This document shows positions 47,980 through 64,000 of a DNA stretch of 64,000 nucleotides, one piece after another (position 1 is the stretch's first letter; every line of letters begins with the position of its first letter). Origin of the DNA: Escherichia coli (GTDB taxonomy: Bacteria > Pseudomonadota > Gammaproteobacteria > Enterobacterales > Enterobacteriaceae); the NCBI RefSeq assembly GCF_013315695.1, contig NZ_CP054353.1, one strand, 5' to 3'. The translations under genes were made by a program, and so were the position numbers. A model generated the notes under the pieces. That model was given only the letters and a program-made list of their open reading frames with translations. It was not told the origin of the DNA and did no database searches.

Positions 47980-48000
47980 TAAAATTTCCTCCGGACAAAA

Positions 48001-48747
48001 TTACTTCACAACCCTCATATTGCTGACATTTGGACGCCAGCTATCCCAGTTAAACGTCACCCATCGACCACCGTTCATGGTCATGCGGTCCATAATCCTC
48101 TCACCAAGAAGCGTACTCATTGCGGCATGATTCAGGTTTGTTAACATCCCGACACTGCACAGTGATGCTGTCCGGCGATCAATTATCTGGTGCAATACCA
48201 CCTGCTCGTTTTTCGTCTCCCGCTGAACGCCTATTTCATCCAGGACCAGCAAATCAACCCCGCAAAGCTCCTGTAAAAATTTTTCCCCGGATTTGCCGTT
48301 GTCGTAGCTGTCATGCAACACGCTCATGACGTCAGACACGGTGACGATAATCACGCTGCGCCCCTTCACCATCAGCCGGTTGCCCATCGCCGCTGCAAGG
48401 TGATTTTTCCCGGTGCCGGTTTTACCGCTGAACACAAAATTCGTGCACCCGGTCATCAGTTCGTCAGCTATGGATTTGGCCTGGCTCAGCGCGTATTTTT
48501 GCCCGTCGTTCTGCACCTGATAATTTGCAAACGAGCATTTGCTGTGCAGAGGCTGGATGCCCGAACGATTCAGGATTTTTTCCACCCGCAACTGGCGATT
48601 CTGGCGGTTAATCTCCTCGCTGCGTTTTCGTCCTTCAGCAAGTTGCCATTCCCGCCACTCCTCCACCGTCCGGTACGGTGGAACCGACCCCTGTGGTGCA
48701 AGTCTGCGAATACGTTCAAGACCCCCAACTGCCGCAATGTTTTTCAT
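48001..48747 (-). CDS. DnaC/IstB-like replication ATPase (helicase loader)
   Basis: 248-aa ORF with Walker A GKTGTGKNHLAAA and Walker B LLVLDEIG. Confidence 0.85.
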   Translation of the reverse strand: MKNIAAVGGLERIRRLAPQGSVPPYRTVEEWREWQLAEGRKRSEEINRQNRQLRVEKILNRSGIQPLHSKCSFANYQVQNDGQKYALSQAKSIADELMTGCTNFVFSGKTGTGKNHLAAAMGNRLMVKGRSVIIVTVSDVMSVLHDSYDNGKSGEKFLQELCGVDLLVLDEIGVQRETKNEQVVLHQIIDRRTASLCSVGMLTNLNHAAMSTLLGERIMDRMTMNGGRWVTFNWDSWRPNVSNMRVVK

Positions 48748-48753
48748 GACACG

Positions 48754-49731
48754 TCACCCCCTGAATCCCGGCGGTATTTCAGTGTCCGGTTCAGAAATGT
48801 GATTCACGCAACGCTGCGCAGGCGAACGCCCCAGGCGGATAACCAGTTCATCCCATTTTTCCCGGAGTTTTGCCGGACTCATGATGTTTTTTACCCAGAA
48901 CGAATCCCGCTGGAGACGCCCAAACATTTCACAAATTTGTCTGTGAGTTCTGCCATCCAGCATCCGCATTGTGCGAACGTCATTGGCCCATGCTGTCCAG
49001 TTGGGTTCTTTCGGTCTAGTGATCTCGCCATCATAGCTGGCCGCCTGCTCGTAAAGACTCACGATTCGTCCCCAGATCCACTGTGCGCACACCAAATCTT
49101 CCTGACTTCCCCACTGGCGTTTTTTCGCACTGAACACAACCGCGTCAGGGTGTCGGGTTAAAAAATCCTGTTCAGCCGTCTGCGGGTCCGGTTGCGAAGC
49201 GTCCGGACAAGAAGATCTTTTATCTGACGGATCAGGTTTTAATACTGACGGATCGGGGTCAATCATCGCCCCCCTAATCGGCAGTTTTTTATCAACAGTT
49301 GATCCATCAAAATTTGACGGGTCAACCGTTGAGGGGTCAATATTTGACGGGTCAACTGTTAACGGGTCATTTTTTGCCGGGCTAATTTTTCTTTTCGGTT
49401 TATATGACTCACGCGCCGCCGCCGCAGCTGCTTCGAGTTTTTCCACATTAAGCCGATAGATATTGCTTACATTACGCCCACCGACCTTACGCTCTTCCTT
49501 CGTCAGCCAGCCCTCTTTCGCCAGTTCTGCAATAGCCGATTTCACTGTGGATTCACTTCTTGCACCGATCTGACGCCGGATAGTTTCAATGGCAGGCCAT
49601 GACACGCCCTCGTCATTGCTGTAGTCTGCAAGACGGGCCATAACCGCCACCCTGGATAAGATCATGCCGGTGAAGGCGCACCCTTCCCAGACAAGACCAT
49701 GAAGCTTGCTGCTCATAAAACCCCCGAACAC
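48754..49731 (-). CDS. replication initiator (lambda O / YdaU-like) with internal origin iterons
   Basis: 325-aa ORF; N-terminal HTH region; repeated DPSNIDPSTVDPSNFDGSTVD peptide encoded by DNA iterons. Confidence 0.75.
   Translation of the reverse strand: MFGGFMSSKLHGLVWEGCAFTGMILSRVAVMARLADYSNDEGVSWPAIETIRRQIGARSESTVKSAIAELAKEGWLTKEERKVGGRNVSNIYRLNVEKLEAAAAAARESYKPKRKISPAKNDPLTVDPSNIDPSTVDPSNFDGSTVDKKLPIRGAMIDPDPSVLKPDPSDKRSSCPDASQPDPQTAEQDFLTRHPDAVVFSAKKRQWGSQEDLVCAQWIWGRIVSLYEQAASYDGEITRPKEPNWTAWANDVRTMRMLDGRTHRQICEMFGRLQRDSFWVKNIMSPAKLREKWDELVIRLGRSPAQRCVNHISEPDTEIPPGFRG
49299..49373. repeat. origin-like iterons (five ~15-bp direct repeats, ttgacgggtcaac-type) inside the O-like gene
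   Basis: ttgatccatcaaaat / ttgacgggtcaaccg / ttgaggggtcaatat / ttgacgggtcaactg / ttaacgggtcatttt. Confidence 0.7.
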
Positions 49732-49738
49732 CGTGCTT

Positions 49739-50164
49739 TTAGTGCATCACCACAGCATTCCCTGCCGGGCCGCCGCGATTCATCTGGTCATACAAAACAA
49801 CCGCTGACGCAACAAAATCATCGACATCCTTCACCAGCCGATCCCTCCGTTCGACGATCTCACGGTAATATTCAGAACTGTGGCTGCGCATACGGGCCAC
49901 CAGCAAAGGCGGCATCGCCTTTTCGATCGCCGGTAACAGAGCCTGCATTTTTTCAACAGCATCAGGGGGGGCTTTCTCTACCCAGCGGAAAATTTTCTGG
50001 GTATTGCGAGCCAGGGCTTCCGGATGGCTGTCGTCATACAGTTCCGGGAACGTCATACCCAACTCAAAATAAGCCTGGGTTATTCCAGCTGCTGGAACTT
50101 TTTCGCCATCAGGACGCGCCCAGGCATTCATCGCCATGCGGATGTGTTCATGCTTGATTTTCAT
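49739..50164 (-). CDS. YdaT-like protein (cII-position gene)
   Basis: 141-aa ORF beginning MKIKHEHI…, as remembered for Rac YdaT. Confidence 0.65.
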   Translation of the reverse strand: MKIKHEHIRMAMNAWARPDGEKVPAAGITQAYFELGMTFPELYDDSHPEALARNTQKIFRWVEKAPPDAVEKMQALLPAIEKAMPPLLVARMRSHSSEYYREIVERRDRLVKDVDDFVASAVVLYDQMNRGGPAGNAVVMH

Positions 50165-50429
50165 GAATCAAGCTCCTAGAAAGTGGTTGTGTTAACGTTT
50201 TGGTATCTTCCAGCTCGGGCCAAATATTCATCCAATCAAAAGGCCTTAGTTGCTGACGTGTAACTTCACCATTACTGGCTCGCTCAATAAGGACACATAA
50301 CGATGCCCCTAACACTTGACCTTTACTCAATGCCTTTCTTAGATAACCGATGCTGGTACCACACTCGCATGCAAACATACGCTGTTCATCTGACGAAAGA
50401 GAATTGAGAAATATTCTTAATTCTTCCAT
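50148..50429 (-). CDS. Cro-like/YdaS-family HTH regulator
   Basis: 93-aa ORF with HTH (ECGTSIGYLRKALSKGQ) and YdaS-like C-terminus (QQLRPFDWMNIWPEL); divergent from repressor gene. Confidence 0.7.
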   Translation of the reverse strand: MEELRIFLNSLSSDEQRMFACECGTSIGYLRKALSKGQVLGASLCVLIERASNGEVTRQQLRPFDWMNIWPELEDTKTLTQPLSRSLIHENQA

Positions 50430-50456
50430 AGCTACTCCTTAGTAAACACAGCAAAG

Positions 50457-50493
50457 AATACCCACAGGTAAACAAAAGCCAATACCCACAGGT
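50457..50493. promoter_or_regulatory. right operator region (two aatacccacaggt sites within gtaaacaa/ttgtttac inverted repeat)
   Basis: Repeated 13-mers at 50457..50469 and 50481..50493 in the 100-bp divergent intergenic region. Confidence 0.6.
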
Positions 50494-50529
50494 TGTTTAC
50501 CTTGCGGTAATCGCATCTATTATTTACCT

Positions 50530-50949
50530 ATGGACAAATATGAATTTAGACGACAGCAACTCATCAAAATTCGTGATGAGAAATGCGATGGTAAAGCGGT
50601 TAACGTGGCCAGAAAGATCGGGCGCGAGCCTTCTTATGTATCAAGAATGTTGTACCCAGAGGGGAAAAAGGGAAAAAAACGGATCGCTGATGATATGGTG
50701 GAGATTATCGAAGAGTCCTTTGGGTTACCCCGGGGATGGATGGATGGTATCGTTTCATCATCAACGAACACAGCCTCCAGTTATGAAACAAGGGTTCTAA
50801 CGCCACGACAACGTATTTTTTTAGATCTCTTAGACGAACTGCCAGAAAGTGAAGCGGATAAATTATTAAAAACTCTTGAAGAGAAAAAACAGTATTACAA
50901 TATGATCTACGAAGAAATCCGTAAAAAGAAAGCACAAAACGCATCATAG
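50530..50949 (+). CDS. prophage repressor, RacR-like (HTH, no S24 peptidase domain)
   Basis: 139-aa ORF with HTH (AVNVARKIGREPSYVSRMLY); divergent from cro-like gene. Confidence 0.7.
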   Translation: MDKYEFRRQQLIKIRDEKCDGKAVNVARKIGREPSYVSRMLYPEGKKGKKRIADDMVEIIEESFGLPRGWMDGIVSSSTNTASSYETRVLTPRQRIFLDLLDELPESEADKLLKTLEEKKQYYNMIYEEIRKKKAQNAS

Positions 50950-50989
50950 CTCACCAAACAACTAGTCACCAGTTAAGACACCGCAAAAT

Positions 50990-51028
50990 TTACCCATGGG
51001 TATTTACTTTTTAAATACCTATGGGTAT
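50990..51028. promoter_or_regulatory. left operator-like palindromes (tacccatgggta, atacctatgggtat)
   Basis: Palindromes sharing the accca.(g)ggt core with the right operator, just upstream of the leftward early operon. Confidence 0.5.
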
Positions 51029-51213
51029 CCTTCTTTTCATACCAACCCACCCCGCCCCACAGAATGCAGGGCAATACTTCGAGTTACCAGGCAGTGGTCA
51101 GGGGTTAAGTAGCCAGCCCGAGGCGTAAGAACATGACGGCAGGGTTCAACTTTAATAACTATGCAGCAGGTTTTTGTTCCGCTACCCCGGCGTTAAGGGG
51201 AAATGAGGTCAGC

Positions 51214-51366
51214 ATGGATACTATCGATCTTGGCAACAGCGAATCTCTGGTATGTGGCGTGTTCCCCAACCAGGACGGTACGTTCACCGCGATGACGTAT
51301 ACCAGAAGCAAAACGTTTAAAACTGAAGCTGGCGCGCGTCGCTGGTTAACCAGAAACACTGACTGA
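51214..51366 (+). CDS. hypothetical small early protein (YdaF-like by position)
   Basis: 50-aa ORF MDTIDLGNSESLVCGVFPNQDGTFTAMTYTRSKTFKTEAGARRWLTRNTD with RBS; alternative start at 51133. Confidence 0.45.
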   Translation: MDTIDLGNSESLVCGVFPNQDGTFTAMTYTRSKTFKTEAGARRWLTRNTD

Positions 51367-51779
51367 TGAGGTTGACGATGGAATTTAAAGATTTACCAGT
51401 ACCATTCCAGGAAATGGCATCGAATGTGGTTCGCTCTCAACTGGCGACTCTTGACCTGAGTACCGTAGAAAAGGAAACCATCGATACTATATCCGGTAAC
51501 GTGCGTCGTGCCTTTATAGGTCTGTATGAAGAGAAGCGCCTATTCGGCGGACAGAATTCGCCTGAAAACAAGAATCAAGCAAATGATGAGAAGCTGAAAC
51601 ACATTATCGCCTTACTTTTGGAAGACGCAAAACGTCTACAGCAACTGGAACCAAATGCAGGCACAGAGGCCCGCATTTGGATTGCCATGAAATCACTCAA
51701 ATGTGAAAGCAGTGATTATTTCAAAACAACAATTAAAACTACTCAACTTTCGGGAGAGCTACTGAAGAAATTGCCATAA
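51366..51779 (+). CDS. hypothetical early protein
   Basis: 137-aa ORF whose start overlaps the previous stop. Confidence 0.5.
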   Translation: MRLTMEFKDLPVPFQEMASNVVRSQLATLDLSTVEKETIDTISGNVRRAFIGLYEEKRLFGGQNSPENKNQANDEKLKHIIALLLEDAKRLQQLEPNAGTEARIWIAMKSLKCESSDYFKTTIKTTQLSGELLKKLP

Positions 51780-52056
51780 GAGCATGGTCTTTCTCTTGTT
51801 CTGCAAGATGAGCATTAATACCTGGTATGGTTTTTTCAAATTTATCTATCTGTTGAATAACAACTTCGCGGTATACGTTTGTTTTTGTACCACCAAGCGC
51901 AGCCGTTAATGCAGAAAGCATATTTAGTATCATATCAGTGCGATATGAAAGAATCCTGATAGCTTCATCTTGTTCTTCAATAATAGATTGCAGGGCCTCA
52001 ATTTGCTTTTTATCCATTTCACCCTCCTGAGGGTTGGTAATTAAGGAGTTCTCCAC
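51739..52056 (-). CDS. hypothetical protein, opposite orientation within early-left operon
   Basis: 105-aa ORF convergent with orf137; predicted coiled-coil-like composition. Confidence 0.4.
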   Translation of the reverse strand: MENSLITNPQEGEMDKKQIEALQSIIEEQDEAIRILSYRTDMILNMLSALTAALGGTKTNVYREVVIQQIDKFEKTIPGINAHLAEQEKDHALMAISSVALPKVE

Positions 52057-52588
52057 GGGTCAGGTGGAGTGCGTGCGCCGGACACGGGTGAGCATCCGGC
52101 ACTGACAGCTTACTGAAAGGATATGTCCCTGAAAAGTCAGGGCATAACGCGAAAGCGCACGGCGAAATTGGTCTCTCTGTACGGTGTCGTTAAATTTAGT
52201 TCGACCGTGCGCTTCCGGTTGTGGCACTCCGCGAAATGGCGCGGCGGTAAGTATGGCTGGGGTTTCCTCCATTGCTCCAGAAAATGCACCGGGTTGTCAG
52301 GTTGACCATACGCTTAAGTGACAACCCCGCTACAACGCCCTCTGTTATCAATTTTCTGGTGACATTTGGCGGTATCAGTTTTACTCCGTGACTGCTCTGC
52401 CGCCCTTTTTAAAGTGAATTTTGTGATGCGGTGAATGCGGCTATGCGCACGCGGAACAGTTAAAGCAGTAAGGCGGTATTTTACGGGCGTAACGAGCATC
52501 AACTAACCCGGCGTTAATTGTTAACTGGTTAACGTCACCTGGAGGCACCAGGCACTGCATCACAAAATTCATTGTTGAGGACGCGATA

Positions 52589-52777
52589 ATGGAAACGTTA
52601 TTACCAAACGTTAATACGTCTGAAGGTTGTTTTGATATTGGTGTTCTGCTCAGTAACCGGGAGTTTACTGAAGATGCCATTAATATGAGGAAATATGAGC
52701 CTTATCTGCTCAATGATAATTCCATACTTTCCCGAATTGCTCTTCTTGAACTTGGTATTTTCGGAGAACGTCAATGA
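52589..52777 (+). CDS. hypothetical small protein
   Basis: 62-aa ORF with RBS; stop overlaps next start (ATGA). Confidence 0.45.
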   Translation: METLLPNVNTSEGCFDIGVLLSNREFTEDAINMRKYEPYLLNDNSILSRIALLELGIFGERQ

Positions 52778-52962
52778 CTTCAGCATTTGCACTGATGATG
52801 ACGGTTTTTCTTATAACGGGTGAATCACAGAATGTGATTACCGGAATTTATGCAAGTAAAGAATCCTGCCTCCAGGCAAGAGACGAGCAAAAAATTTCTG
52901 GTGAATGCCTCCCGCTAAAAAAAGTATCGCTGTACCTGAATAACGAAACACCGGCTGGATAA
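52774..52962 (+). CDS. hypothetical small protein with N-terminal hydrophobic segment
   Basis: 62-aa ORF MTSAFALMMTVFLITGESQ…, translationally coupled to previous ORF. Confidence 0.45.
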   Translation: MTSAFALMMTVFLITGESQNVITGIYASKESCLQARDEQKISGECLPLKKVSLYLNNETPAG

Positions 52963-53057
52963 CCCTCCAGCCATATTAACACCATACCAACGGATTAAAA
53001 ATGCCAGCAATGGCAGGGATTCGTTCACCCTGAAATCTGTAATGAGGTTAAAACAAA

Positions 53058-55529
53058 ATGAGTAAGGTCTTTATTTGCGCTGCTATTCCTGATGAACAGG
53101 CCATAAAAGAAGATAGCGCTGTTGCGGTGGCCACTGCCATTGAAGCTGGTGATGAGCGTCGCGCACGCGCAAAATTTCATTGGCAATTTCTGGAGCAATT
53201 CCCTGCAGCTCAGGACTGCGCTTATAAATTTATTGTCTGTGAGGATAAACCCGGCATACCCCGCCCTGCCCTCGATTCCTGGGATGCTGAATATATGCAG
53301 GAAAACCGCTGGGATGAGGAGTCTGCTTCCTTTGTCCCGGTTGAGACTGAATCCGATCCGATGAACGTCACTTTTGACAAGCTGGCCCCTGAAGTACAGA
53401 ACGCTGTCATGGTTAAGTTCGACACATGTGAAAACATCACCGTTGATATGGTTATTAGCGCACAGGAATTGTTGCAGGAAGACATGGCAACATTCGACGG
53501 ACATATCGTTGAAGCGTTGATGAAAATGCCAGAAGTTAACGCCATGTATCCGGAGCTTAAGCTGCATGCCATCGGGTGGGTTAAGCATAAATGTAAGCCT
53601 GGTGCCAAATGGCCCGAAATTCAGGCAGAGATGCGCATCTGGAAAAAACGTCGCGAAGGTGAACGTAAGGAAACCGGAAAATACACGTCTGTTATTGATC
53701 TCGCCCGCGCCAGAACCAATCAACAGCACAGTGAAAATTCAACAGGAAAAATCAGCCCGGTCATTGCTGCCATTCATCGCGAATACAAGCAGACATGGAA
53801 AACACTGGATGACGAACTGGCCTACGCTCTCTGGCCTGGTGATGTGGATGCCGGAAACATTGACGGCAGCATCCATCGCTGGGCAAAAAATGAAGTTATC
53901 GACAACGACCGCGAAGACTGGAAGCGTATCTCGGCATCAATGCGCAAACAGCCTGATGCCCTTCGCTACGACCGCCAAACTATTTTTGGCCTTGTCCGTG
54001 AGCGTCCGATCGACATTCACAAAGATCCCGTAGCACTGAACAAATATATCTGCGAATACCTGACGACAAAGGGCGTGTTTGAGAATGAAGAAACAGACCT
54101 GGGCACTGTTGATGTTCTCCAGTCATCAGAAACACAAACTGATGCAGTGGAAACTGAGGTATCTGATATCCCAAAAAATGAAACCGCGCCGGAAGCTGAA
54201 CCATCTGTAGAGCGTGAGGGGCCGTTCTATTTCCTCTTCGCAGATAAGGACGGAGAAAAATGCGGTCGCGCAAACAAACTTTCTGGTCTGGATAAGGCAC
54301 TGGCTGCTGGCGCCACTGAAATCACAAAAGAAGAATATTTTGCCCGAAAAAATGGCACATACACGGGCTTACCGCAAAATGTAGATACCGCTGAAGATTC
54401 AGAACAACCAGAGCCGATAAAAGTTACCGCTGACGAAGTAAACAAAATTATGCAGGCAGCCAATATCAGCCAGCCTGACGCCGATAAGTTGCTTGCTGCA
54501 TCACGTGGTGAATTTGTTGAAGGGATTAGTGACCCGAATGATCCGAAATGGGTTAAGGGGATCCAGACCCGCGATTCTGTGAACCAGAACCAGCATGAAT
54601 CGGAACGGAACTACCAAAAAGCGGAACAAAACAGCCCAAATGCGTTACAAAACGAGCCAGAAACGAAACAGCCTGAACCAGTGGCGCAACAGGAAGTGGA
54701 AAAAGTCTGCACCGCCTGCGGTCAGACCGGCGGCGGCAACTGCCCTGATTGTGGCGCGGTGATGGGCGACGCAACATACCAGGAAACATTCGATGAAGAG
54801 TATCAGGTTGAAGTTCAGGAAGATGATCCGGAGGAAATGGAAGGCGCTGAACATCCACACAAGGAGAACACTGGCGGCAATCAGCATCACGATAGCGATA
54901 ATGAAACTGGCGAGACGGCAGATCGCTCAATTAAGGTGAACGGTCATCACGAAATCACATCCACCAGCAGGACGTGTGACCATCTAATGATCGACCTTGA
55001 AACCATGGGAAAAAATCCTGATGCCCCGATCATCTCAATAGGTGCAATATTTTTCGATCCGCAAACCGGAGATATGGGACCGGAATTTAGTAAGACTATC
55101 GATCTGGAAACTGCTGGCGGAGTCATTGATCGGGACACCATTAAATGGTGGCTTAAGCAATCACGCGAAGCGCAATCTGCCATTATGACCGATGAAATCC
55201 CGTTAGATGATGCACTGTTACAATTGCGGGAATTTATCGACGAAAACTCCGGTGAATTTTTTGTTCAGGTTTGGGGAAATGGAGCCAACTTCGACAACAC
55301 GATTTTGCGCCGTTCATACGAACGGCAGGGGATCCCCTGCCCGTGGCGTTACTACAACGATCGCGATGTACGCACAATCGTTGAGCTGGGGAAAGCCATA
55401 GACTTCGATGCCAGAACGGCTATTCCATTCGAAGGTGAGCGCCATAATGCACTTGATGACGCCCGTTACCAGGCAAAATACGTTTCAGTTATCTGGCAAA
55501 AACTGATCCCGAGTCAGGCTGATTTTTAA
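53058..55529 (+). CDS. exodeoxyribonuclease VIII-like protein with C-terminal DnaQ-type (DEDDh) 3'-5' exonuclease domain
   Basis: 823-aa ORF; acidic linker; C-terminal HLMIDLETMG…WGNGANFDNTIL…HNALDDARYQA exonuclease motifs. Confidence 0.7.
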   Translation: MSKVFICAAIPDEQAIKEDSAVAVATAIEAGDERRARAKFHWQFLEQFPAAQDCAYKFIVCEDKPGIPRPALDSWDAEYMQENRWDEESASFVPVETESDPMNVTFDKLAPEVQNAVMVKFDTCENITVDMVISAQELLQEDMATFDGHIVEALMKMPEVNAMYPELKLHAIGWVKHKCKPGAKWPEIQAEMRIWKKRREGERKETGKYTSVIDLARARTNQQHSENSTGKISPVIAAIHREYKQTWKTLDDELAYALWPGDVDAGNIDGSIHRWAKNEVIDNDREDWKRISASMRKQPDALRYDRQTIFGLVRERPIDIHKDPVALNKYICEYLTTKGVFENEETDLGTVDVLQSSETQTDAVETEVSDIPKNETAPEAEPSVEREGPFYFLFADKDGEKCGRANKLSGLDKALAAGATEITKEEYFARKNGTYTGLPQNVDTAEDSEQPEPIKVTADEVNKIMQAANISQPDADKLLAASRGEFVEGISDPNDPKWVKGIQTRDSVNQNQHESERNYQKAEQNSPNALQNEPETKQPEPVAQQEVEKVCTACGQTGGGNCPDCGAVMGDATYQETFDEEYQVEVQEDDPEEMEGAEHPHKENTGGNQHHDSDNETGETADRSIKVNGHHEITSTSRTCDHLMIDLETMGKNPDAPIISIGAIFFDPQTGDMGPEFSKTIDLETAGGVIDRDTIKWWLKQSREAQSAIMTDEIPLDDALLQLREFIDENSGEFFVQVWGNGANFDNTILRRSYERQGIPCPWRYYNDRDVRTIVELGKAIDFDARTAIPFEGERHNALDDARYQAKYVSVIWQKLIPSQADF

Positions 55530-55593
55530 TGTTCAACCCCGGTCGTTGCCCACCAGCTATAGTGGCGGCGACCATGATTAGCGAACGACGCCC

Positions 55594-55842
55594 ATGGCAA
55601 GACTTATTCTGCTCACTGAGTGGGCAAAAGAGGAATTCAGTGAACCGGTCCCTACTCCGAGTACGTTAAGTAAATACGCTAAAGCCGGAATGATATTTCC
55701 TCTCCCCAAAAAAGTTGGAAGACGCTGGCGAGTGGATCCGCAAGCTCGCTTTGTCGGAATGGTAAACAAGCCGGAGGTGATCGCCACAGATCACCCTGCT
55801 TTGAAGAGGATACTGGAAGATGGCGCGCCCGCGAAAATATAA
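55594..55842 (+). CDS. xis: excisionase-like protein
   Basis: 82-aa ORF immediately upstream of and overlapping the integrase gene. Confidence 0.6.
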   Translation: MARLILLTEWAKEEFSEPVPTPSTLSKYAKAGMIFPLPKKVGRRWRVDPQARFVGMVNKPEVIATDHPALKRILEDGAPAKI

Positions 55843-56950
55843 AACCGATGTTCCGGGATTATCTCCGTATTTTGACAAAAGAAATAACAAAGTTTACTGG
55901 CGTTACAGGCATCCCATAACAGGCAAAAATCACGGTCTCGGCAGTATTGACCAGAAACTGGCAGAAACTATTGCAGCAGAAGCGAACAGCCGTCTTGCCC
56001 GGCAGCAAATGGAACAAATGCTCAGTCTGCAGGAGAAAATTATTAGTGATACCGGCGGTTCATCAACCGTTACCATTTTTCTGAATAATTACAGAAAAAT
56101 TCAACAGGAAAGATATGAAAACGGCGAGATCAAACTCAACACGCTGAAACAGAAAGCAGCTCCTCTCAGGGTATTTGATGAACGTTTTGGCACCAGACCG
56201 TTAGATGCCATAACCGTAAAAGATGTGGTATCAGTACTGGAAGAGTACAAGGCCAGAGGACATAACAGAATGGGACAAATTTTCAGGAAAGTACTGATCG
56301 ATGTTTTCCGGGAAGCTCAGCAAACGGGCGATGTCCCGCCAGGCTTTAACCCTGCAGAATCGGCAAAAAAACCGCAGGTGCGGATATCAAGACAGCGACT
56401 GACTTTTGATGAGTGGATGATGATTTATAACGCAGCGGAAAAGGATGGTTACTTTTTACAGCGCGGTATGCTGCTGGCACTGATGACAGGCCAGCGCCTT
56501 TCAGATATTTGCAAAATGCAATTTTCGGATATCCGGGATGGTTATCTTCATGTCGAACAGCAAAAAACAGGAACCCGGATTGCCATCCCTCTGGCTCTGC
56601 GTTGCGATAAATTAAATCTCACCCTGGATGATGTGGTGTCATCCTGCCGCGATTGCGTTCTTAGTCCGTGGCTATTGCACCACCATCACGCGAAAGGGAC
56701 AGCTAAGCGCGGCGGGATGGTTAAGCCAGCAACATTAACCGTTGCATTTAAAAAAGCCCGGGATTCTGTGGATTACAACTGGCGTGCTAATGGCACCCCT
56801 CCCTCTTTCCATGAGCAGAGATCTTTATCAGAGCGATTGTTCAGAGAGCAGGGGGTTGATACCAAAATTTTGCTAGGCCATTCGAATCAAAAAATGACCG
56901 ATATTTACAACGACGCACGCGGTAAGGAATGGAAAAAACTGGTCATTTGA
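55820..56950 (+). CDS. int: tyrosine recombinase (lambda-type integrase)
   Basis: 376-aa ORF with catalytic-region motifs (…LMTGQRLSDICKMQFSDI…, …HHHAKGTAKRGG…, …LLGHSNQKMTDIY…); 3' end 35 bp from ompW stop. Confidence 0.85.
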   Translation: MARPRKYKTDVPGLSPYFDKRNNKVYWRYRHPITGKNHGLGSIDQKLAETIAAEANSRLARQQMEQMLSLQEKIISDTGGSSTVTIFLNNYRKIQQERYENGEIKLNTLKQKAAPLRVFDERFGTRPLDAITVKDVVSVLEEYKARGHNRMGQIFRKVLIDVFREAQQTGDVPPGFNPAESAKKPQVRISRQRLTFDEWMMIYNAAEKDGYFLQRGMLLALMTGQRLSDICKMQFSDIRDGYLHVEQQKTGTRIAIPLALRCDKLNLTLDDVVSSCRDCVLSPWLLHHHHAKGTAKRGGMVKPATLTVAFKKARDSVDYNWRANGTPPSFHEQRSLSERLFREQGVDTKILLGHSNQKMTDIYNDARGKEWKKLVI

Positions 56951-60772: not shown

Positions 60773-61069
60773 GTGTTGTATGTTATTTACGCTCAAGACA
60801 AAGCTGATAGCCTCGAAAAACGCCTTTCCGTTCGTCCGGCACATTTAGCACGTTTACAGTTACTGCATGATGAAGGTCGTTTGTTGACCGCCGGTCCAAT
60901 GCCAGCAGTAGACAGTAACGATCCAGGGGCTGCGGGATTTACTGGCTCAACCGTTATTGCTGAATTTGAGTCGCTGGAAGCAGCTCAGGCCTGGGCCGAT
61001 GCTGACCCGTACGTAGCGGCAGGAGTCTATGAACACGTTTCAGTGAAACCATTTAAGAAAGTGTTTTGA
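60773..61069 (+). CDS. yciI: YciI-like protein (GTG start)
   Basis: GTG start preceded by aaggag; product [38 protein letters not shown]…. Confidence 0.8.
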
Positions 61070-61221
61070 ATAAATTAAATATTATTTAAATTCAAAGCAA
61101 TAACGAAAGACAGTCAACATAATCAATAATAAAGGGCGCATTTAAGTACACATTAATCTAAGCGCCCCTTTTTTTTCGCTACGACTTATACTTTCAGTCT
61201 GACATCTGGCTGGAGGTTTCT

Positions 61222-61479
61222 ATGTGCGGACGCTTTTCACAGTCAATGACGCGTGAAGACTATCTCGCCCTTCTCGCAGATGAAGTCGAGCAAGACATTC
61301 CATATGACCCTGAACCGATCGGACGTTTCAACGTTGCGCCAGGCACCAAAGTTCTGCTTCTGAGCGAACGTGACGAGAAACTCCATCTTGATCCAGTTTT
61401 CTGGGGATACGCCCCGGATGGTGGGATAAACCTGGATTTTTACACATACCAAAGACAGATTAGATACTCTACTAATTAG
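61222..61479 (+). pseudogene. 5' fragment of an SOS-response-associated peptidase (SRAP/YedK-family) gene, truncated after ~70 codons
   Basis: MCGRFSQSMTREDYLALLADEVEQDIPYDPEPIGRFNVAPGTKVLLLSERDEKLHLDPVFWGYAP then unrelated residues and stop at the AT-rich junction. Confidence 0.7.
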
Positions 61480-61587
61480 ATTTTAAACTCATGATTAGTA
61501 AGAGAGACTACCATGATTTATTTAACCAAAATGTCATTTTGTGATATTCTGCATAAAAGTTCATTATTCTAGAGATAGAGCATTAAT

Positions 61588-63381
61588 ATGAGTATCGGTT
61601 TGAGCAAAGTCGTTACAAGATATAAAAACTTAAAGTTGAAATCATATGTTTTCGACATTGTCAACGTTATGTTTTTATTGTACTTATTTTGTTTTCTAAA
61701 TCAGTCAATAGTTATCATAGGAAATATTGAACCGCCTAAAGAGTTAATTGGTGCAATATTGAATTTCATCTGGCGTTCATCCCCCATTTTGTTTATTTAT
61801 TTGTTATTTAGAATAATAAACATTCCAATTTTTCTATGTTCTTATTTATCAGGCATCGCAATTATAACATTGATGTTTGTGAACAGTACTAAAATGGCGT
61901 TAACCGGTGAGCCTTTATCATTTAATGACATTGTTTCTGGATTCAATTTGAGTGTCGCAGGAAAATACCTCAACTTATCATCCATTACTTACTCTGTCGC
62001 TATTCTAATTGGCGCAATAATCTCAATCCTACTTAGCAAAAAAACGGTCACAACAAGAAAAAATTATATATCGTTATTTCTTTTAATTATCATTACGATC
62101 CCCTTTTCATTCTACCCCTATATTGGAACCATTTTTAGCCCTAACAATAGGATTTCTGAAATCATAAACTCCAGCGCGAACAACTTAAATATAAAATATA
62201 TTTACTGGAATTGGTCTCAAAATATTGGCGTTAATGGCTTGCCAATGCATATAATACAAACAAGTGTCAGAAAATCTGTACCACATGCAACTGATGCAGA
62301 ACAATTAAGATATTTAGATGAAAAAAGATCTTTAGTATCCACTCATATAAAAAATAAAACCATTATTTATGTTTTATGTGAATCATGTTGGTATGATAAA
62401 AAAAACTTCCGAGAAAATTTCAAACCTGTTATTGATGAAGGTTACAGTGAATTACGGGCCATCTCACCAGTTTACGGTGGAGGTACCGCAAATGCCGAAT
62501 TTGAAATGCTGACAGGACTACCAAGTAATTCAGATAAAATATCAGGAATCATCTATCAAGAATATTCAGATGCATTCAAACCAAAAGTTGACGCATTACC
62601 TAATGCCCTGAAAAACAAAGGCTATATTACTTTCGCAGCACATAATTACCAAGCAGACTTTTGGTATAGGAATAAAATTTACCCTAAATTTGGATTTGAT
62701 AGATTTGATAGCATTATTAATATGGGAGATTTACCACCAGAGTATAGCAGTATTAAAAAACCATGGCAGTGGCAACCTGATGACTACCTGCTTTACAATG
62801 CAGCATTAAAAGCCATCCAAAATGCAGGAAACAAAGATATTTTTGTACATTTGATCACTATGTCAACTCATGGTCCTTATCAACACATTAATGATTATGG
62901 TGAAGGTGTTTATACCTATGAGATTAATGAGGCAGTCAAAAGATTCGTTCAATTTTCACAGCAAGTAGAAAAAATAGATCCAAATGCTGTAATCGTCTTT
63001 TACGGTGACCATAAACCACCACTAAATAAATATTTCGTCGAAAATGGGGTGCTACCAAGTAATATTTTCAACAAAATCGGAGAAGAAAAAGATGAAGATT
63101 TCGTCTTTAAAATGAGCACAACCCCACTCGATTTTGGTGATGTTCCTGTGCTTATTAAATCAAATGATAAAGACGCCATTAAAAAATTCATAACCGACGC
63201 CAATGGAAAACCTTTTTTCTGTGTATCTTCATTAGTTGATAAACATTTCATTCAATCTGGATTGGTATCATTTAATCACAACGCAAAGCATGTCTGTGAA
63301 AACAGTGATAACTTTAATTATGATAAGTTAATTAACATGACCCCGTCGTGGATTTATTCAATGTCATTATTTCACGATTAG
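61588..63381 (+). CDS. LtaS-like sulfatase-family membrane enzyme (5 N-terminal TM helices plus alkaline-phosphatase-superfamily domain), very AT-rich
   Basis: 597-aa ORF; N-terminal TM segments; GGGTANAEFEMLTG nucleophile-type motif and YGDHKP metal-binding motif typical of LtaS/phosphoglycerol-transferase-like enzymes. Confidence 0.6.
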   Translation: MSIGLSKVVTRYKNLKLKSYVFDIVNVMFLLYLFCFLNQSIVIIGNIEPPKELIGAILNFIWRSSPILFIYLLFRIINIPIFLCSYLSGIAIITLMFVNSTKMALTGEPLSFNDIVSGFNLSVAGKYLNLSSITYSVAILIGAIISILLSKKTVTTRKNYISLFLLIIITIPFSFYPYIGTIFSPNNRISEIINSSANNLNIKYIYWNWSQNIGVNGLPMHIIQTSVRKSVPHATDAEQLRYLDEKRSLVSTHIKNKTIIYVLCESCWYDKKNFRENFKPVIDEGYSELRAISPVYGGGTANAEFEMLTGLPSNSDKISGIIYQEYSDAFKPKVDALPNALKNKGYITFAAHNYQADFWYRNKIYPKFGFDRFDSIINMGDLPPEYSSIKKPWQWQPDDYLLYNAALKAIQNAGNKDIFVHLITMSTHGPYQHINDYGEGVYTYEINEAVKRFVQFSQQVEKIDPNAVIVFYGDHKPPLNKYFVENGVLPSNIFNKIGEEKDEDFVFKMSTTPLDFGDVPVLIKSNDKDAIKKFITDANGKPFFCVSSLVDKHFIQSGLVSFNHNAKHVCENSDNFNYDKLINMTPSWIYSMSLFHD

Positions 63382-63731
63382 TATCTAGAAAATAATTGTA
63401 ATAAATCATCATTAATTATGTAGACGCCTAAAATTAGGCATCTACATTTTATTAGAAAAGAGGTTGTCCTGACTAGGTTGTGGAAATGTGCATCGCATAA
63501 ATCAAGGCTATAGAGCATGAAAGTGCGTTCTTCCCCCTCTACCATTGATAAATATTTAAAAGTGCTCACGCTGGATTCGATCCAGGCATTAGCATCTTTG
63601 AGTGAGAATTCCCAGTTAACTTTGCTCAACCCCTGAACAAATCGCTGTGTAGTGACGGTCTTCCGGCCATTCGGCTCTTGCTGTATCGAAGAATACCAGG
63701 CTATTTCAATATCGCTGCGTCGTGGCATCAT
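63378..63731 (-). pseudogene. 5' fragment of an unidentified (likely mobile-element-associated) gene running into the AT-rich cassette
   Basis: First ~85 codons (MMPRRSDIEIAWYSSIQQEPNGRKTVTTQRFVQGLSKVNWEF…) look like a real protein; remainder reads into low-complexity AT-rich DNA. Confidence 0.35.
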
Positions 63732-63806
63732 TACGCCCTCTCTTGAATACCGGATAAAAACACAGTATAAATACTGTATATACACCCAGTAAAGAGGCAA
63801 TGAGCA

Positions 63807-64000
63807 ATGTTCGTGGAACTCGTTTATGGCAAAAGGAATTTTGATGGACTGCCCGGTGCAAAAGATATCATTCTGGGCGAGTTGACCAAGAGGGTTCACC
63901 GGATTTTCCCCGGCGCTGATGTCCGGGTTAAACCGATGATGACATTGCCGGCGATCAACACTGACGCCAACAAGCATGAGAATGAACAGATAAGCCGTAC
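63807..64000 (+). CDS. DinI-like protein (partial; runs off window end)
   Basis: RBS aaagagg then MFVELVYGKRNFDGLPGAKDIILGELTKRVHRIFPGADVRVKPMMTLPAINTDANKHENEQISR, recalled as prophage DinI-family protein. Confidence 0.6.
   Translation, partial: MFVELVYGKRNFDGLPGAKDIILGELTKRVHRIFPGADVRVKPMMTLPAINTDANKHENEQISR

Follow-up and report, generated by a model that had tools for sequence, protein, structure and literature searches.

The yciI-kch island and its AT-rich cassette

The window analysed here, a stretch of 64,000 nucleotides from the Escherichia coli contig NZ_CP054353.1 (assembly GCF_013315695.1), runs through ompW, yciC, yciB, yciA, tonB and yciI, as read from its open reading frames (ORFs) and the RefSeq annotation of identical DNA, and then enters an island in which a single gene of foreign composition encodes a 597-residue membrane protein of the LtaS family. 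A preliminary description, made from the letters alone, had pointed to an AT-rich block of about 2 kb downstream of yciI, and the composition bears this out: the GC content drops from 49.6% (positions 1-61000) to 32.0% (61433-63506), with a GC3 of 29.6% for the ORF. The horizontal acquisition proposed in that description is supported both by this foreign composition and by the distribution of the island, which is carried by 30 of 5,426 complete E. coli genomes, so that its gene does not belong to the core. The block and its contents are as follows.

61433..63509: AT-rich single-gene cassette of approximately 2.08 kb with 32% GC (composition, junctions, repeat search)
61439..61468, + strand: candidate sigma-70 promoter, TTTACA-18-GATACT, approximately 120 nt upstream of the ATG (9/12 consensus match; weak evidence)
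61588..63381, + strand: 597-residue LtaS-family gene, predicted to encode an anchor of five transmembrane (TM) helices and a periplasmic phosphotransferase domain (ORF, Pfam, AlphaFold2 model, homologues)
63418..63454, + strand: hairpin (63418-63447) resembling an intrinsic terminator, 37 nt past the stop codon, with UUUUAUU behind it

Homology common to all E. coli ends at position 61083, 14 nt beyond the stop codon of yciI. With positions 60900-61260 as the query, the match ended there (query position 184) in 13 of 14 sampled rows from the other approximately 5,390 records, and at query position 164 in the remaining one, ATCC 25922; coverage of at least 80% of this query was confined to the 30 island-bearing records. 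These carriers, which include SMS-3-5, came from humans, chickens, dogs and river water, and their inserts are 99.9-100% identical. A cluster at 90% groups about 415 sequences of carriers. In the RefSeq annotation of the identical loci, yciI is followed by an SRAP-family pseudogene, an 'LTA synthase family protein', a truncated hypothetical gene on the minus strand, a DinI-like gene, a tail-fibre-domain fragment, one or more IS3-family transposases, an integrase Arm-domain fragment and finally kch. Given this gene order, the yciI-kch insert is a degraded prophage of some 5-6 kb, and kch, which was expected next to yciI from the order in strain K-12, is present but displaced beyond the island. 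No RNA element or tRNA integration site was found between 60 and 64 kb of the window. Among the complete E. coli genomes there was no cassette-free, ancestral form of the island, the cassette being present in 30 of 30 carriers.

The cassette contains no transposase and, by the ORF list, no second ORF of note, and a search for terminal repeats at its edges, inverted or direct, returned only short chance matches. When five other loci of the family are compared with it, DNA similarity starts within the coding sequence and ends at the stop codon, and the flanks are not shared. A transposon or insertion sequence (IS) was considered as the vehicle and was ruled out by the lack of edge repeats, the lack of a transposase and the confinement of homology to the coding sequence. 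The terminator hairpin has a folding free energy of -16.4 kcal/mol (z-score -4.07), and none of 200 shuffled sequences folded as well; a consensus terminator scan missed it, probably owing to one internal mismatch. Having its own terminator, a single gene, no repeats and homology only in the coding sequence, the cassette is of the anatomy of a phage 'moron' that was acquired by illegitimate recombination and not by transposition. It also stands apart from the prophage DNA in which it is inserted (32% versus 46-52% GC), the phage gene fragments on its left and right having GC contents of 52% and 46%, respectively. The carriage on a mobile element that had been suggested earlier thus holds for the dead prophage and not for the cassette itself, which has neither mobility machinery nor terminal repeats. 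A search with PADLOC gave no match to an anti-phage defence system.

The junctions and the flanking phage genes were delimited by alignment with intact homologues, and the corresponding features are these.

61084..61221: leftmost part of the island, non-core DNA that reaches from where homology common to all E. coli stops to the start codon of the SRAP gene
61222..61432, + strand: SRAP/YedK-family pseudogene, reduced to the first 70 of about 222 codons and carrying a -1 frameshift (PRK09951, phrog_1599, RefSeq)
63510..63731, - strand: small phage gene of phrog_3893, residues 1-73 of about 79 kept (PHROG match, alignment with intact homologues)
63774..63789: LexA-box-like sequence taCTGTATATACACCCAGta, between the divergent small gene and DinI-like gene, with one mismatch to CTGT-N8-ACAG
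63807..64000, + strand: 5' part of a DinI-like gene (228 nt in RefSeq; phrog_189 DinI, E 7e-11; WP_000497462.1), which continues past the end of the window

On the left, a YedK/SRAP gene had been described as cut to its first 70 or so codons, which agrees with a match to positions 1-66 of 222 of NCBIfam PRK09951 (E 1e-36) and with an alignment to the intact SRAP gene of strain 1943 that begins in the promoter region and ends exactly at 61432, placing the junction at 61432/61433. The fragment carries in addition a 1-nt deletion in the C-run at 61412-61415, and RefSeq labels it as a frameshifted and C-terminally truncated pseudogene. In strain C1 (locus L002, 3630-4968), IS421 interrupts the corresponding SRAP gene immediately behind '...GGGGATACGCCCC', at the C-run that bears the deletion in the window and 17 nt before the cassette junction. 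These three independent lesions within about 20 nt could point to a site that is fragile or targeted, or could be a coincidence.

On the right, the minus-strand gene is truncated as had been described, but much less so than the retention of only its 5' 85 or so codons would imply, since about 73 of about 79 codons are kept and the gene is almost whole. It starts at 63731/63728 and matches positions 1-74 of 79 of phrog_3893; intact phage homologues of 79-80 residues are conserved with it up to residue 73 and then diverge, which places the right junction at about 63509/63510, and its frame runs on into cassette DNA as far as 63381. RefSeq treats 63507-63731 as a C-terminally truncated pseudogene. 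The 199-residue minus-strand ORF at 63378-63977 is a composite, in which the upstream third lies antisense to the DinI-like gene, homology to a real gene begins only at the MM at 63731/63728, and the last 43 codons are read-through into the cassette, terminator hairpin included. Intact homologues of the small gene occur in Erwinia phage Midgardsormr38 (80 residues) and Escherichia phage vB_EcoS-733R5 (79 residues), and in both it is directly followed by a gene of about 108 residues that PHROGs label as UmuD-like (a PHROG match was found for it, and no significant Pfam match). Beside the small gene of the window this partner is missing entirely.

Strain C1 again provides the arrangement with which the island can be compared: its SRAP gene (+) and a gene for an S24-family peptidase, UmuD-like (-), converge and abut, and DinI is divergent from the latter. 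By this comparison, approximately 0.9 kb of phage DNA appears to have been exchanged for the 2.08 kb of foreign DNA, and the lost DNA would comprise the 3' 458 nt of the SRAP gene, the UmuD-like gene and about six codons of the small gene. The earlier view, in which two convergent genes lost their 3' ends to the cassette, is therefore right as regards two convergent transcription units, but the unit on the right is a two-gene operon of which the second gene has gone. The DinI-like gene that had been noted to follow does so, starting at 63807. Together with the SRAP gene and the lost UmuD-like gene, the LexA-box-like site points to an accessory module under SOS control at the end of the prophage; a loose LexA pattern occurs 19 times in the window against 18.4 expected, and it is only the position of the site at 63774-63789 that is suggestive. 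Transcription from this putative promoter region would run antisense into the LtaS-like gene.

Two further observations concern the surroundings. In the island of E. coli MS 21-1 (locus L010, 11534-13543), ISEc53 and a gene of the ClbS/DfsB family, to which colibactin self-protection proteins belong, lie inside the right-hand small-gene fragment and a group II intron lies farther right, with the LtaS-like ORF undisturbed. A second and apparently more complete lambdoid prophage is found to the left of ompW at approximately 48000-56950, with an integrase (55820-56950), an 823-residue exonuclease (53058-55529) and, in matching RefSeq records, dicB-type genes; the core segment from ompW to yciI is therefore bracketed by two prophage elements.

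The 597-residue LtaS-family protein

The 597-residue ORF with five TM helices and an LtaS-like domain that had been described from the sequence was recovered in full, and fold, profile and catalytic residues agree on its affiliation. Hydropathy places five hydrophobic segments at about residues 21-43, 56-76, 78-100, 131-151 and 160-182, with which the helices of the AlphaFold2 model agree. The N-terminus and the loop between TM4 and TM5 are rich in Lys and Arg, and the positive-inside rule, as the sole basis for an orientation, would put the C-terminal domain in the periplasm. Sulfatase (PF00884) is the sole Pfam domain, covering residues 257-481 (E 1.4e-25), and the AlphaFold2 model (mean predicted local distance difference test score 89.7, predicted template modelling score 0.86) has a domain of the alkaline-phosphatase fold. 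RefSeq already applies the generic name 'LTA synthase family protein'.

The reading frame itself requires correction in the databases. RefSeq/PGAP models start at 61873 (M96, 502 residues) or 61894 (M103, 495 residues), by which TM1-TM3 are lost, and these starts fall at an invariant motif of the family, K102-x-x-LTGEPLSxND. Since 43 homologues (559-611 residues) align from the same N-terminal methionine column as the 597-residue ORF, and since the invariant motif straddles the RefSeq starts, the 597-residue model is, by this alignment, the correct one and the RefSeq models are too short. Cloning from the annotated starts M96 or M103, which drop three of the five TM helices, would give a non-functional construct.

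When the model was compared with the PDB using Foldseek, the top matches were LtaP (2e-13), GacH (9e-12) and LtaS (1e-10), and full-length MCR-1 (1.4e-11) and the catalytic domains of MCR and EptC enzymes (1e-9 to 1e-7) were also found. PbgA was matched at 4e-8 with a TM-score of 0.33 and a root mean square deviation of 16-18 Å; an identity as PbgA/YejM/LapC was rejected on this poor match of fold and on the absence of the DUF3413 membrane domain, for which there was no Pfam match. A family profile searched against 177,635 PDB sequences retrieved only glycerophosphate transferases, with GacH at 1e-18, LtaP at 1e-15 and LtaS/LtaS2 at 8e-12 to 6e-10, and at E ≤ 0.01 it matched none of the several phosphoethanolamine (PEtN) transferases in that set.

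The residues of the active site tell the same story. The motifs GGGTANAEFE (with T300) and YGDHKP (with D474 and H475), parts of which had been recognized in the preliminary description, are invariant across 44 family members. E265, T300, D474 and H475 align with E255, T300, D475 and H476 of LtaS and with E488, T530, D711 and H712 of GacH, the roles of metal ligands, Thr nucleophile and glycerophosphate-binding residues in GacH and LtaS being those described in bioRxiv 10.1101/337519. T300 is thereby the predicted nucleophile, and E265, D474 and H475 are the predicted metal ligands. By profile alignment to 2W5Q and 4UOP, H352, W359, R361 and H428 correspond to the LtaS pocket residues H347, W354, R356 and H416. 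Seven of these positions (E265, T300, H352, R361, H428, D474 and H475) are invariant in 44 of 44 members; W359 is the majority residue at a column that falls below the ≥90% class. None of the residues that are invariant in the family has been lost from the E. coli copy.

This residue set bears on the head group that is transferred. The protein could instead transfer PEtN or another phospholipid head group, as a counterpart of Opt/Lpt-O of Shigella flexneri or of EptA/B/C: its fold is common to MCR-1 and EptC, RefSeq names Lpt-O-type proteins 'LTA synthase family' too (PMC9376355), and Lpt-O is a proven mobile, single-gene PEtN transferase acting on O-antigen (PMC3458804). We consider this very unlikely, in view of the profile's failure to match any PEtN transferase, the lack of the EptA_B_N domain (PF08019) in the Pfam scan, and the presence of the glycerol-binding triad H347/W354/R356 of LtaS. 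A tblastn search of 72,556 plasmids gave no Shigella record, the presence of the Opt plasmid in that collection not having been checked; the remote matches that it did return led to rejection of the gene as a plasmid gene. A true polymerase, making a polyglycerophosphate chain resembling lipoteichoic acid in a Gram-negative periplasm, would account for the five-TM architecture and the full set of LtaS catalytic and glycerophosphate-binding residues, but it is exceedingly improbable with a score of 27 bits against the cut-off of 970 for the NCBIfam LtaS equivalog, with GacH, a single-unit decorating enzyme, as the best sequence match, and with no glycolipid-anchor genes adjacent to the gene in any context examined. 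A glycerophosphate-type transferase of the LtaS family, carried on a prophage remnant, is what the gene probably encodes.

The relatives and the proposed acceptor

The family to which the protein belongs is a small, patchy and proteobacterial clade. A phmmer search of 1.84 billion representatives, clustered at 50% identity, gave 120 clusters at E ≤ 1e-30, with weaker matches (E ~1e-20 to 1e-19) at the bottom of the best 150 listed, and a motif-seeded scan of 100,044 species genomes found 19 family loci only, spread over Enterobacterales, Pseudomonas, Vitreoscilla, Rhodocyclaceae, Lysobacteraceae, Rhizobiales, Geobacter/Desulfuromonadaceae and Bdellovibrio. Its neighbours in AFDB50 are all uncharacterised, and proteins named for 'cyclic beta-1,2-glucan modification', along with Gram-positive LtaS proteins, appear only in a second tier. 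In the five enterobacterial contexts that were measured, the homologues have 32-38% GC in hosts of 48-57%, an AT-richness typical of surface-polysaccharide genes. The E. coli protein has no PHROG match, and a phage gene proper was rejected as its identity because a tblastn search of 50,697 phage records returned only remote matches of Gram-positive type, at no more than 32% identity over part of the protein; none of these records is an intact phage with the gene.

Some distant members, at 34-40% identity over their full length and with the same invariant residues, lie within polysaccharide clusters. In Aeromonas salmonicida the homologue is preceded or followed by a wecA-like gene, a glycosyltransferase of family 4 and epimerases, and its opposite flank holds rmlC, wzz and a ligase. 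The same member (locus L021, 4674-10034) is bracketed by transposases of the IS66 and IS1595 families, and IS activity may have brought the gene into this O-antigen cluster. Another genome has it adjoining Acyl_transf_3, Bac_transf, Wzt and Wzm; two clusters are ordered glycosyltransferase of family 2 (GT2), the gene, Wzm and Wzt (Wzt_C); in Pseudomonas putida it separates rmlB, rmlC and rmlD from Bac_transf, GT2 and Acyl_transf_3; and in a metagenome-assembled genome of the Desulfuromonadaceae it occurs with Wzm, Wzt and a large GT2. Weaker contexts consist of a Wzx-like flippase 1 kb away, sugar-nucleotide genes on Bdellovibrio-type contigs and an RmlD-like neighbour on a short contig. Of the distinct contexts examined, approximately one in three is a polysaccharide cluster, and the remainder are solitary or uninformative.

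Because distant family members are found within these clusters, the acceptor is proposed to be O-antigen or a similar glycan. The combined reading is then of a prophage-borne moron encoding a glycerophosphate transferase, most likely with O-antigen as its acceptor, and this is the best explanation of the locus, with a probability of roughly 0.55. O-antigen as the acceptor, taken by itself, is put forward tentatively, at rather less than even odds. The envelope-modifying role suggested by the preliminary description thus gains backing from the gene neighbourhoods of distant relatives while staying a proposal.

A number of points weigh against this reading. Identity to the solved glycerophosphate transferases is only about 18-25%, and PEtN transferases share the fold. 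A full-text search of the literature found no study of the gene or its clade. The proposal for the acceptor draws on distant members because the closest relatives (45-63% identity, Enterobacterales) are solitary, at unrelated sites and without polysaccharide neighbours, and specificity may have changed between the two groups. In Citrobacter the homologue adjoins an ORF of Ogr/Delta type, on two metagenome contigs it lies between tyrA and pheA, and in Enterobacter it is beside an ABC transporter, in one strain also with an integrase island. In Kosakonia, where several species have the gene, it lies between cpxP and fieF in four of the loci examined, a pattern that fits a conserved acceptor such as osmoregulated periplasmic glucans, enterobacterial common antigen or the core of the lipopolysaccharide (LPS) at least as well as a strain-variable O-antigen. 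Expression is also in question: promoter-like sites in the region number 10 against 13.8 expected from shuffled sequences, and AT-rich DNA of this kind is usually silenced by H-NS in E. coli. Finally, identity among the 30 copies in E. coli is 99.9-100%, in the pseudogene flanks as much as in the ORF, for which reason the intactness of the ORF does not demonstrate selection.

The last two points are those on which an inert passenger would be argued for, that is, a gene that is silenced, contributes nothing and survives only because its lineage is young. The surrounding prophage is dead, the near-identity of the 30 copies extends to the pseudogenes and gives no signal of selection, no significant promoter was found, and 32% GC is typical of H-NS targets. 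This account is nevertheless rather unlikely, given that the ORF retains all family-invariant residues, that it is intact in three structurally distinct versions of the island with different IS elements or introns nearby, and that its terminator is well formed.

Transfer of the same group to a conserved periplasmic glycan, be it enterobacterial common antigen, LPS core/lipid A or, as with OpgB and the CgmB of rhizobia, osmoregulated periplasmic glucans, is the alternative to which the solitary relatives and the Kosakonia position lend themselves, the locus beside cpxP being related to envelope stress and the second tier in AFDB50 including the 'cyclic beta-1,2-glucan modification' proteins. 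It is unlikely, for identity to CgmB-type proteins is only 18-20% (TM-scores 0.45-0.6), six distant members lie in O-antigen or polysaccharide clusters and none was seen beside opgGH or wec genes, and E. coli already has OpgB. At E ≤ 10, the NCBIfam library offered only a weak match to the LtaS equivalog (27.4 bits) and neither of its two matches was to an OpgB-named family, the presence of an OpgB model in the library not having been checked.

The Kosakonia locus was also considered as evidence for carriage by P2-like prophages. Four Kosakonia-like proviruses of IMG/VR (L017-L020) end with the gene directly after ogr. A prophage-free Kosakonia genome, however, shows collinearity across the gene, the 128 bp upstream of it and fieF, and cargo of such prophages was rejected. 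A Kosakonia-like P2-like prophage (sheath, tube, tape measure, U, D and ogr) ends approximately 360 nt upstream of the LtaS-like gene, and a 50-bp perfect repeat of host sequence, seen against locus L007, marks its edge there; after the repeat come 75 nt that are unmatched in the prophage-free genome, and collinearity then resumes 11 nt earlier. From the collinearity and the upstream position of the repeat, the prophage is adjacent to the gene, and the gene is not demonstrably inside it.

Returning to the prophage-borne glycerophosphate transferase, we infer the following order of events, donor and chemistry. A cassette of gene, terminator and possibly promoter would have entered a prophage of e14/lambdoid type through illegitimate recombination, overwriting about 0.9 kb of its SOS-related accessory module, and the prophage would afterwards have decayed to a remnant of approximately 5-6 kb in which the cassette gene stayed intact. 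If expressed, the product would be held in the inner membrane by its five TM helices with the catalytic domain in the periplasm and, by analogy with LtaS, LtaP and GacH, would bind phosphatidylglycerol at the outer face of that membrane. Metal-activated Thr300 would then attack the phosphodiester, so that diacylglycerol leaves and glycerophosphate stays bound covalently to Thr300; from this intermediate, sn-glycerol-1-phosphate would be passed to a hydroxyl group of a glycan exposed to the periplasm. The likeliest acceptor would be O-antigen or another LPS-linked polysaccharide after its export, amounting to a single-gene surface conversion.

Were envelope glycans glycerophosphorylated in this way, the surface would become more negatively charged, with possible changes in serotype, in the adsorption of phages and tailocins, in sensitivity to cationic peptides and in metal binding; the glycerophosphate of a streptococcal polysaccharide is known to affect zinc and hGIIA (10.1101/337519). 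The enzyme would account for glycerol-phosphate side groups that O-antigen gene clusters leave unexplained. For the clade as a whole, it is possible, though short of probable, that it represents a so far undescribed route of O-antigen glycerophosphorylation in Gram-negative bacteria, present either in clusters or as a single-gene cassette landing at prophage ends, and serving in E. coli as a one-gene conversion of serotype or phage receptor. Modification of the surface is plausible, by what would be an enzyme of a known family rather than a new kind of system. The locus is otherwise an ordinary case of foreign cargo in a decaying prophage, and its value is that of a testable lead for LPS and phage-receptor biology and of a useful correction to annotation.

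Comparison with known systems

With LtaS and LtaP of Staphylococcus, Listeria and Bacillus, the protein shares the five-TM anchor and the extracytoplasmic domain of alkaline-phosphatase fold, as well as the Thr nucleophile, the E, D and H that serve as metal ligands and the H/W/R/H set that binds glycerophosphate. It differs in having only about 15-19% identity to them, a Gram-negative host, no evidence of polymerisation, and a periplasmic loop motif of its own family, K102-x-x-LTGEPLSxND, between TM3 and TM4. Membership in LtaS sensu stricto (NCBIfam NF053595) was rejected at 27.4 bits against a cut-off of 970, the match extending over residues 332-475 only.

GacH of Streptococcus pyogenes (PDB 5U9Z/6DGM) is the best match among solved structures (E 2e-10 with the single sequence, 1e-18 with the profile) and has the motifs YGGGTAN-EF and VFYGDH-P in common with it. 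GacH decorates the finished group A carbohydrate with single glycerophosphate units from phosphatidylglycerol (10.1101/337519), which is the mechanism proposed for the 597-residue enzyme; by this the latter would be a Gram-negative counterpart of the streptococcal enzyme. GacH, however, is a protein of 11 TM helices from a clade found mostly in streptococci (10.1101/337519), whereas the E. coli protein has five, and N586 of GacH is replaced by F358, with the equivalent of the LtaS-type W354 (W359) present instead. The GacH clade, delimited by 11 TM helices and at least 33% identity (10.1101/337519), was rejected as its affiliation on the five TM helices and approximately 18% identity (Foldseek).

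Opt/Lpt-O of S. flexneri serotypes Xv, Yv and 4av is a membrane enzyme with a C-terminal domain of the sulfatase superfamily that transfers a phospholipid-derived phospho-group onto O-antigen and changes the serotype (PMC3458804). The two systems are alike in being single genes on small mobile elements, and the enzyme described here would be the glycerophosphate counterpart of Opt, but Opt transfers PEtN and is plasmid-borne. Assignment to the class of PEtN transferases (EptA/MCR-1/EptC/Opt) was rejected, the protein having PF00884 only, no PF08019 and a likeness at the level of fold only.

OpgB (MdoB) and CgmB of Sinorhizobium are inner-membrane proteins of the same superfamily that transfer sn-glycerol-1-phosphate from phosphatidylglycerol to a periplasmic glycan. 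They differ from the present family in their gene neighbourhoods and, in the case of CgmB-type proteins, in the low identity given above.

As regards genetic setting, the closest parallels are gtrABC, oac/oafA and phage morons, which likewise are foreign, AT-rich accessory genes with their own terminator near a prophage end, and in two O-antigen clusters a family member has an Acyl_transf_3 O-acetyltransferase gene as its direct neighbour. In chemistry and protein family the present gene differs from gtr and oac and, unlike morons, the cassette destroyed phage genes rather than sitting between them, while the homologous gene of Kosakonia lies just outside a P2-like prophage.

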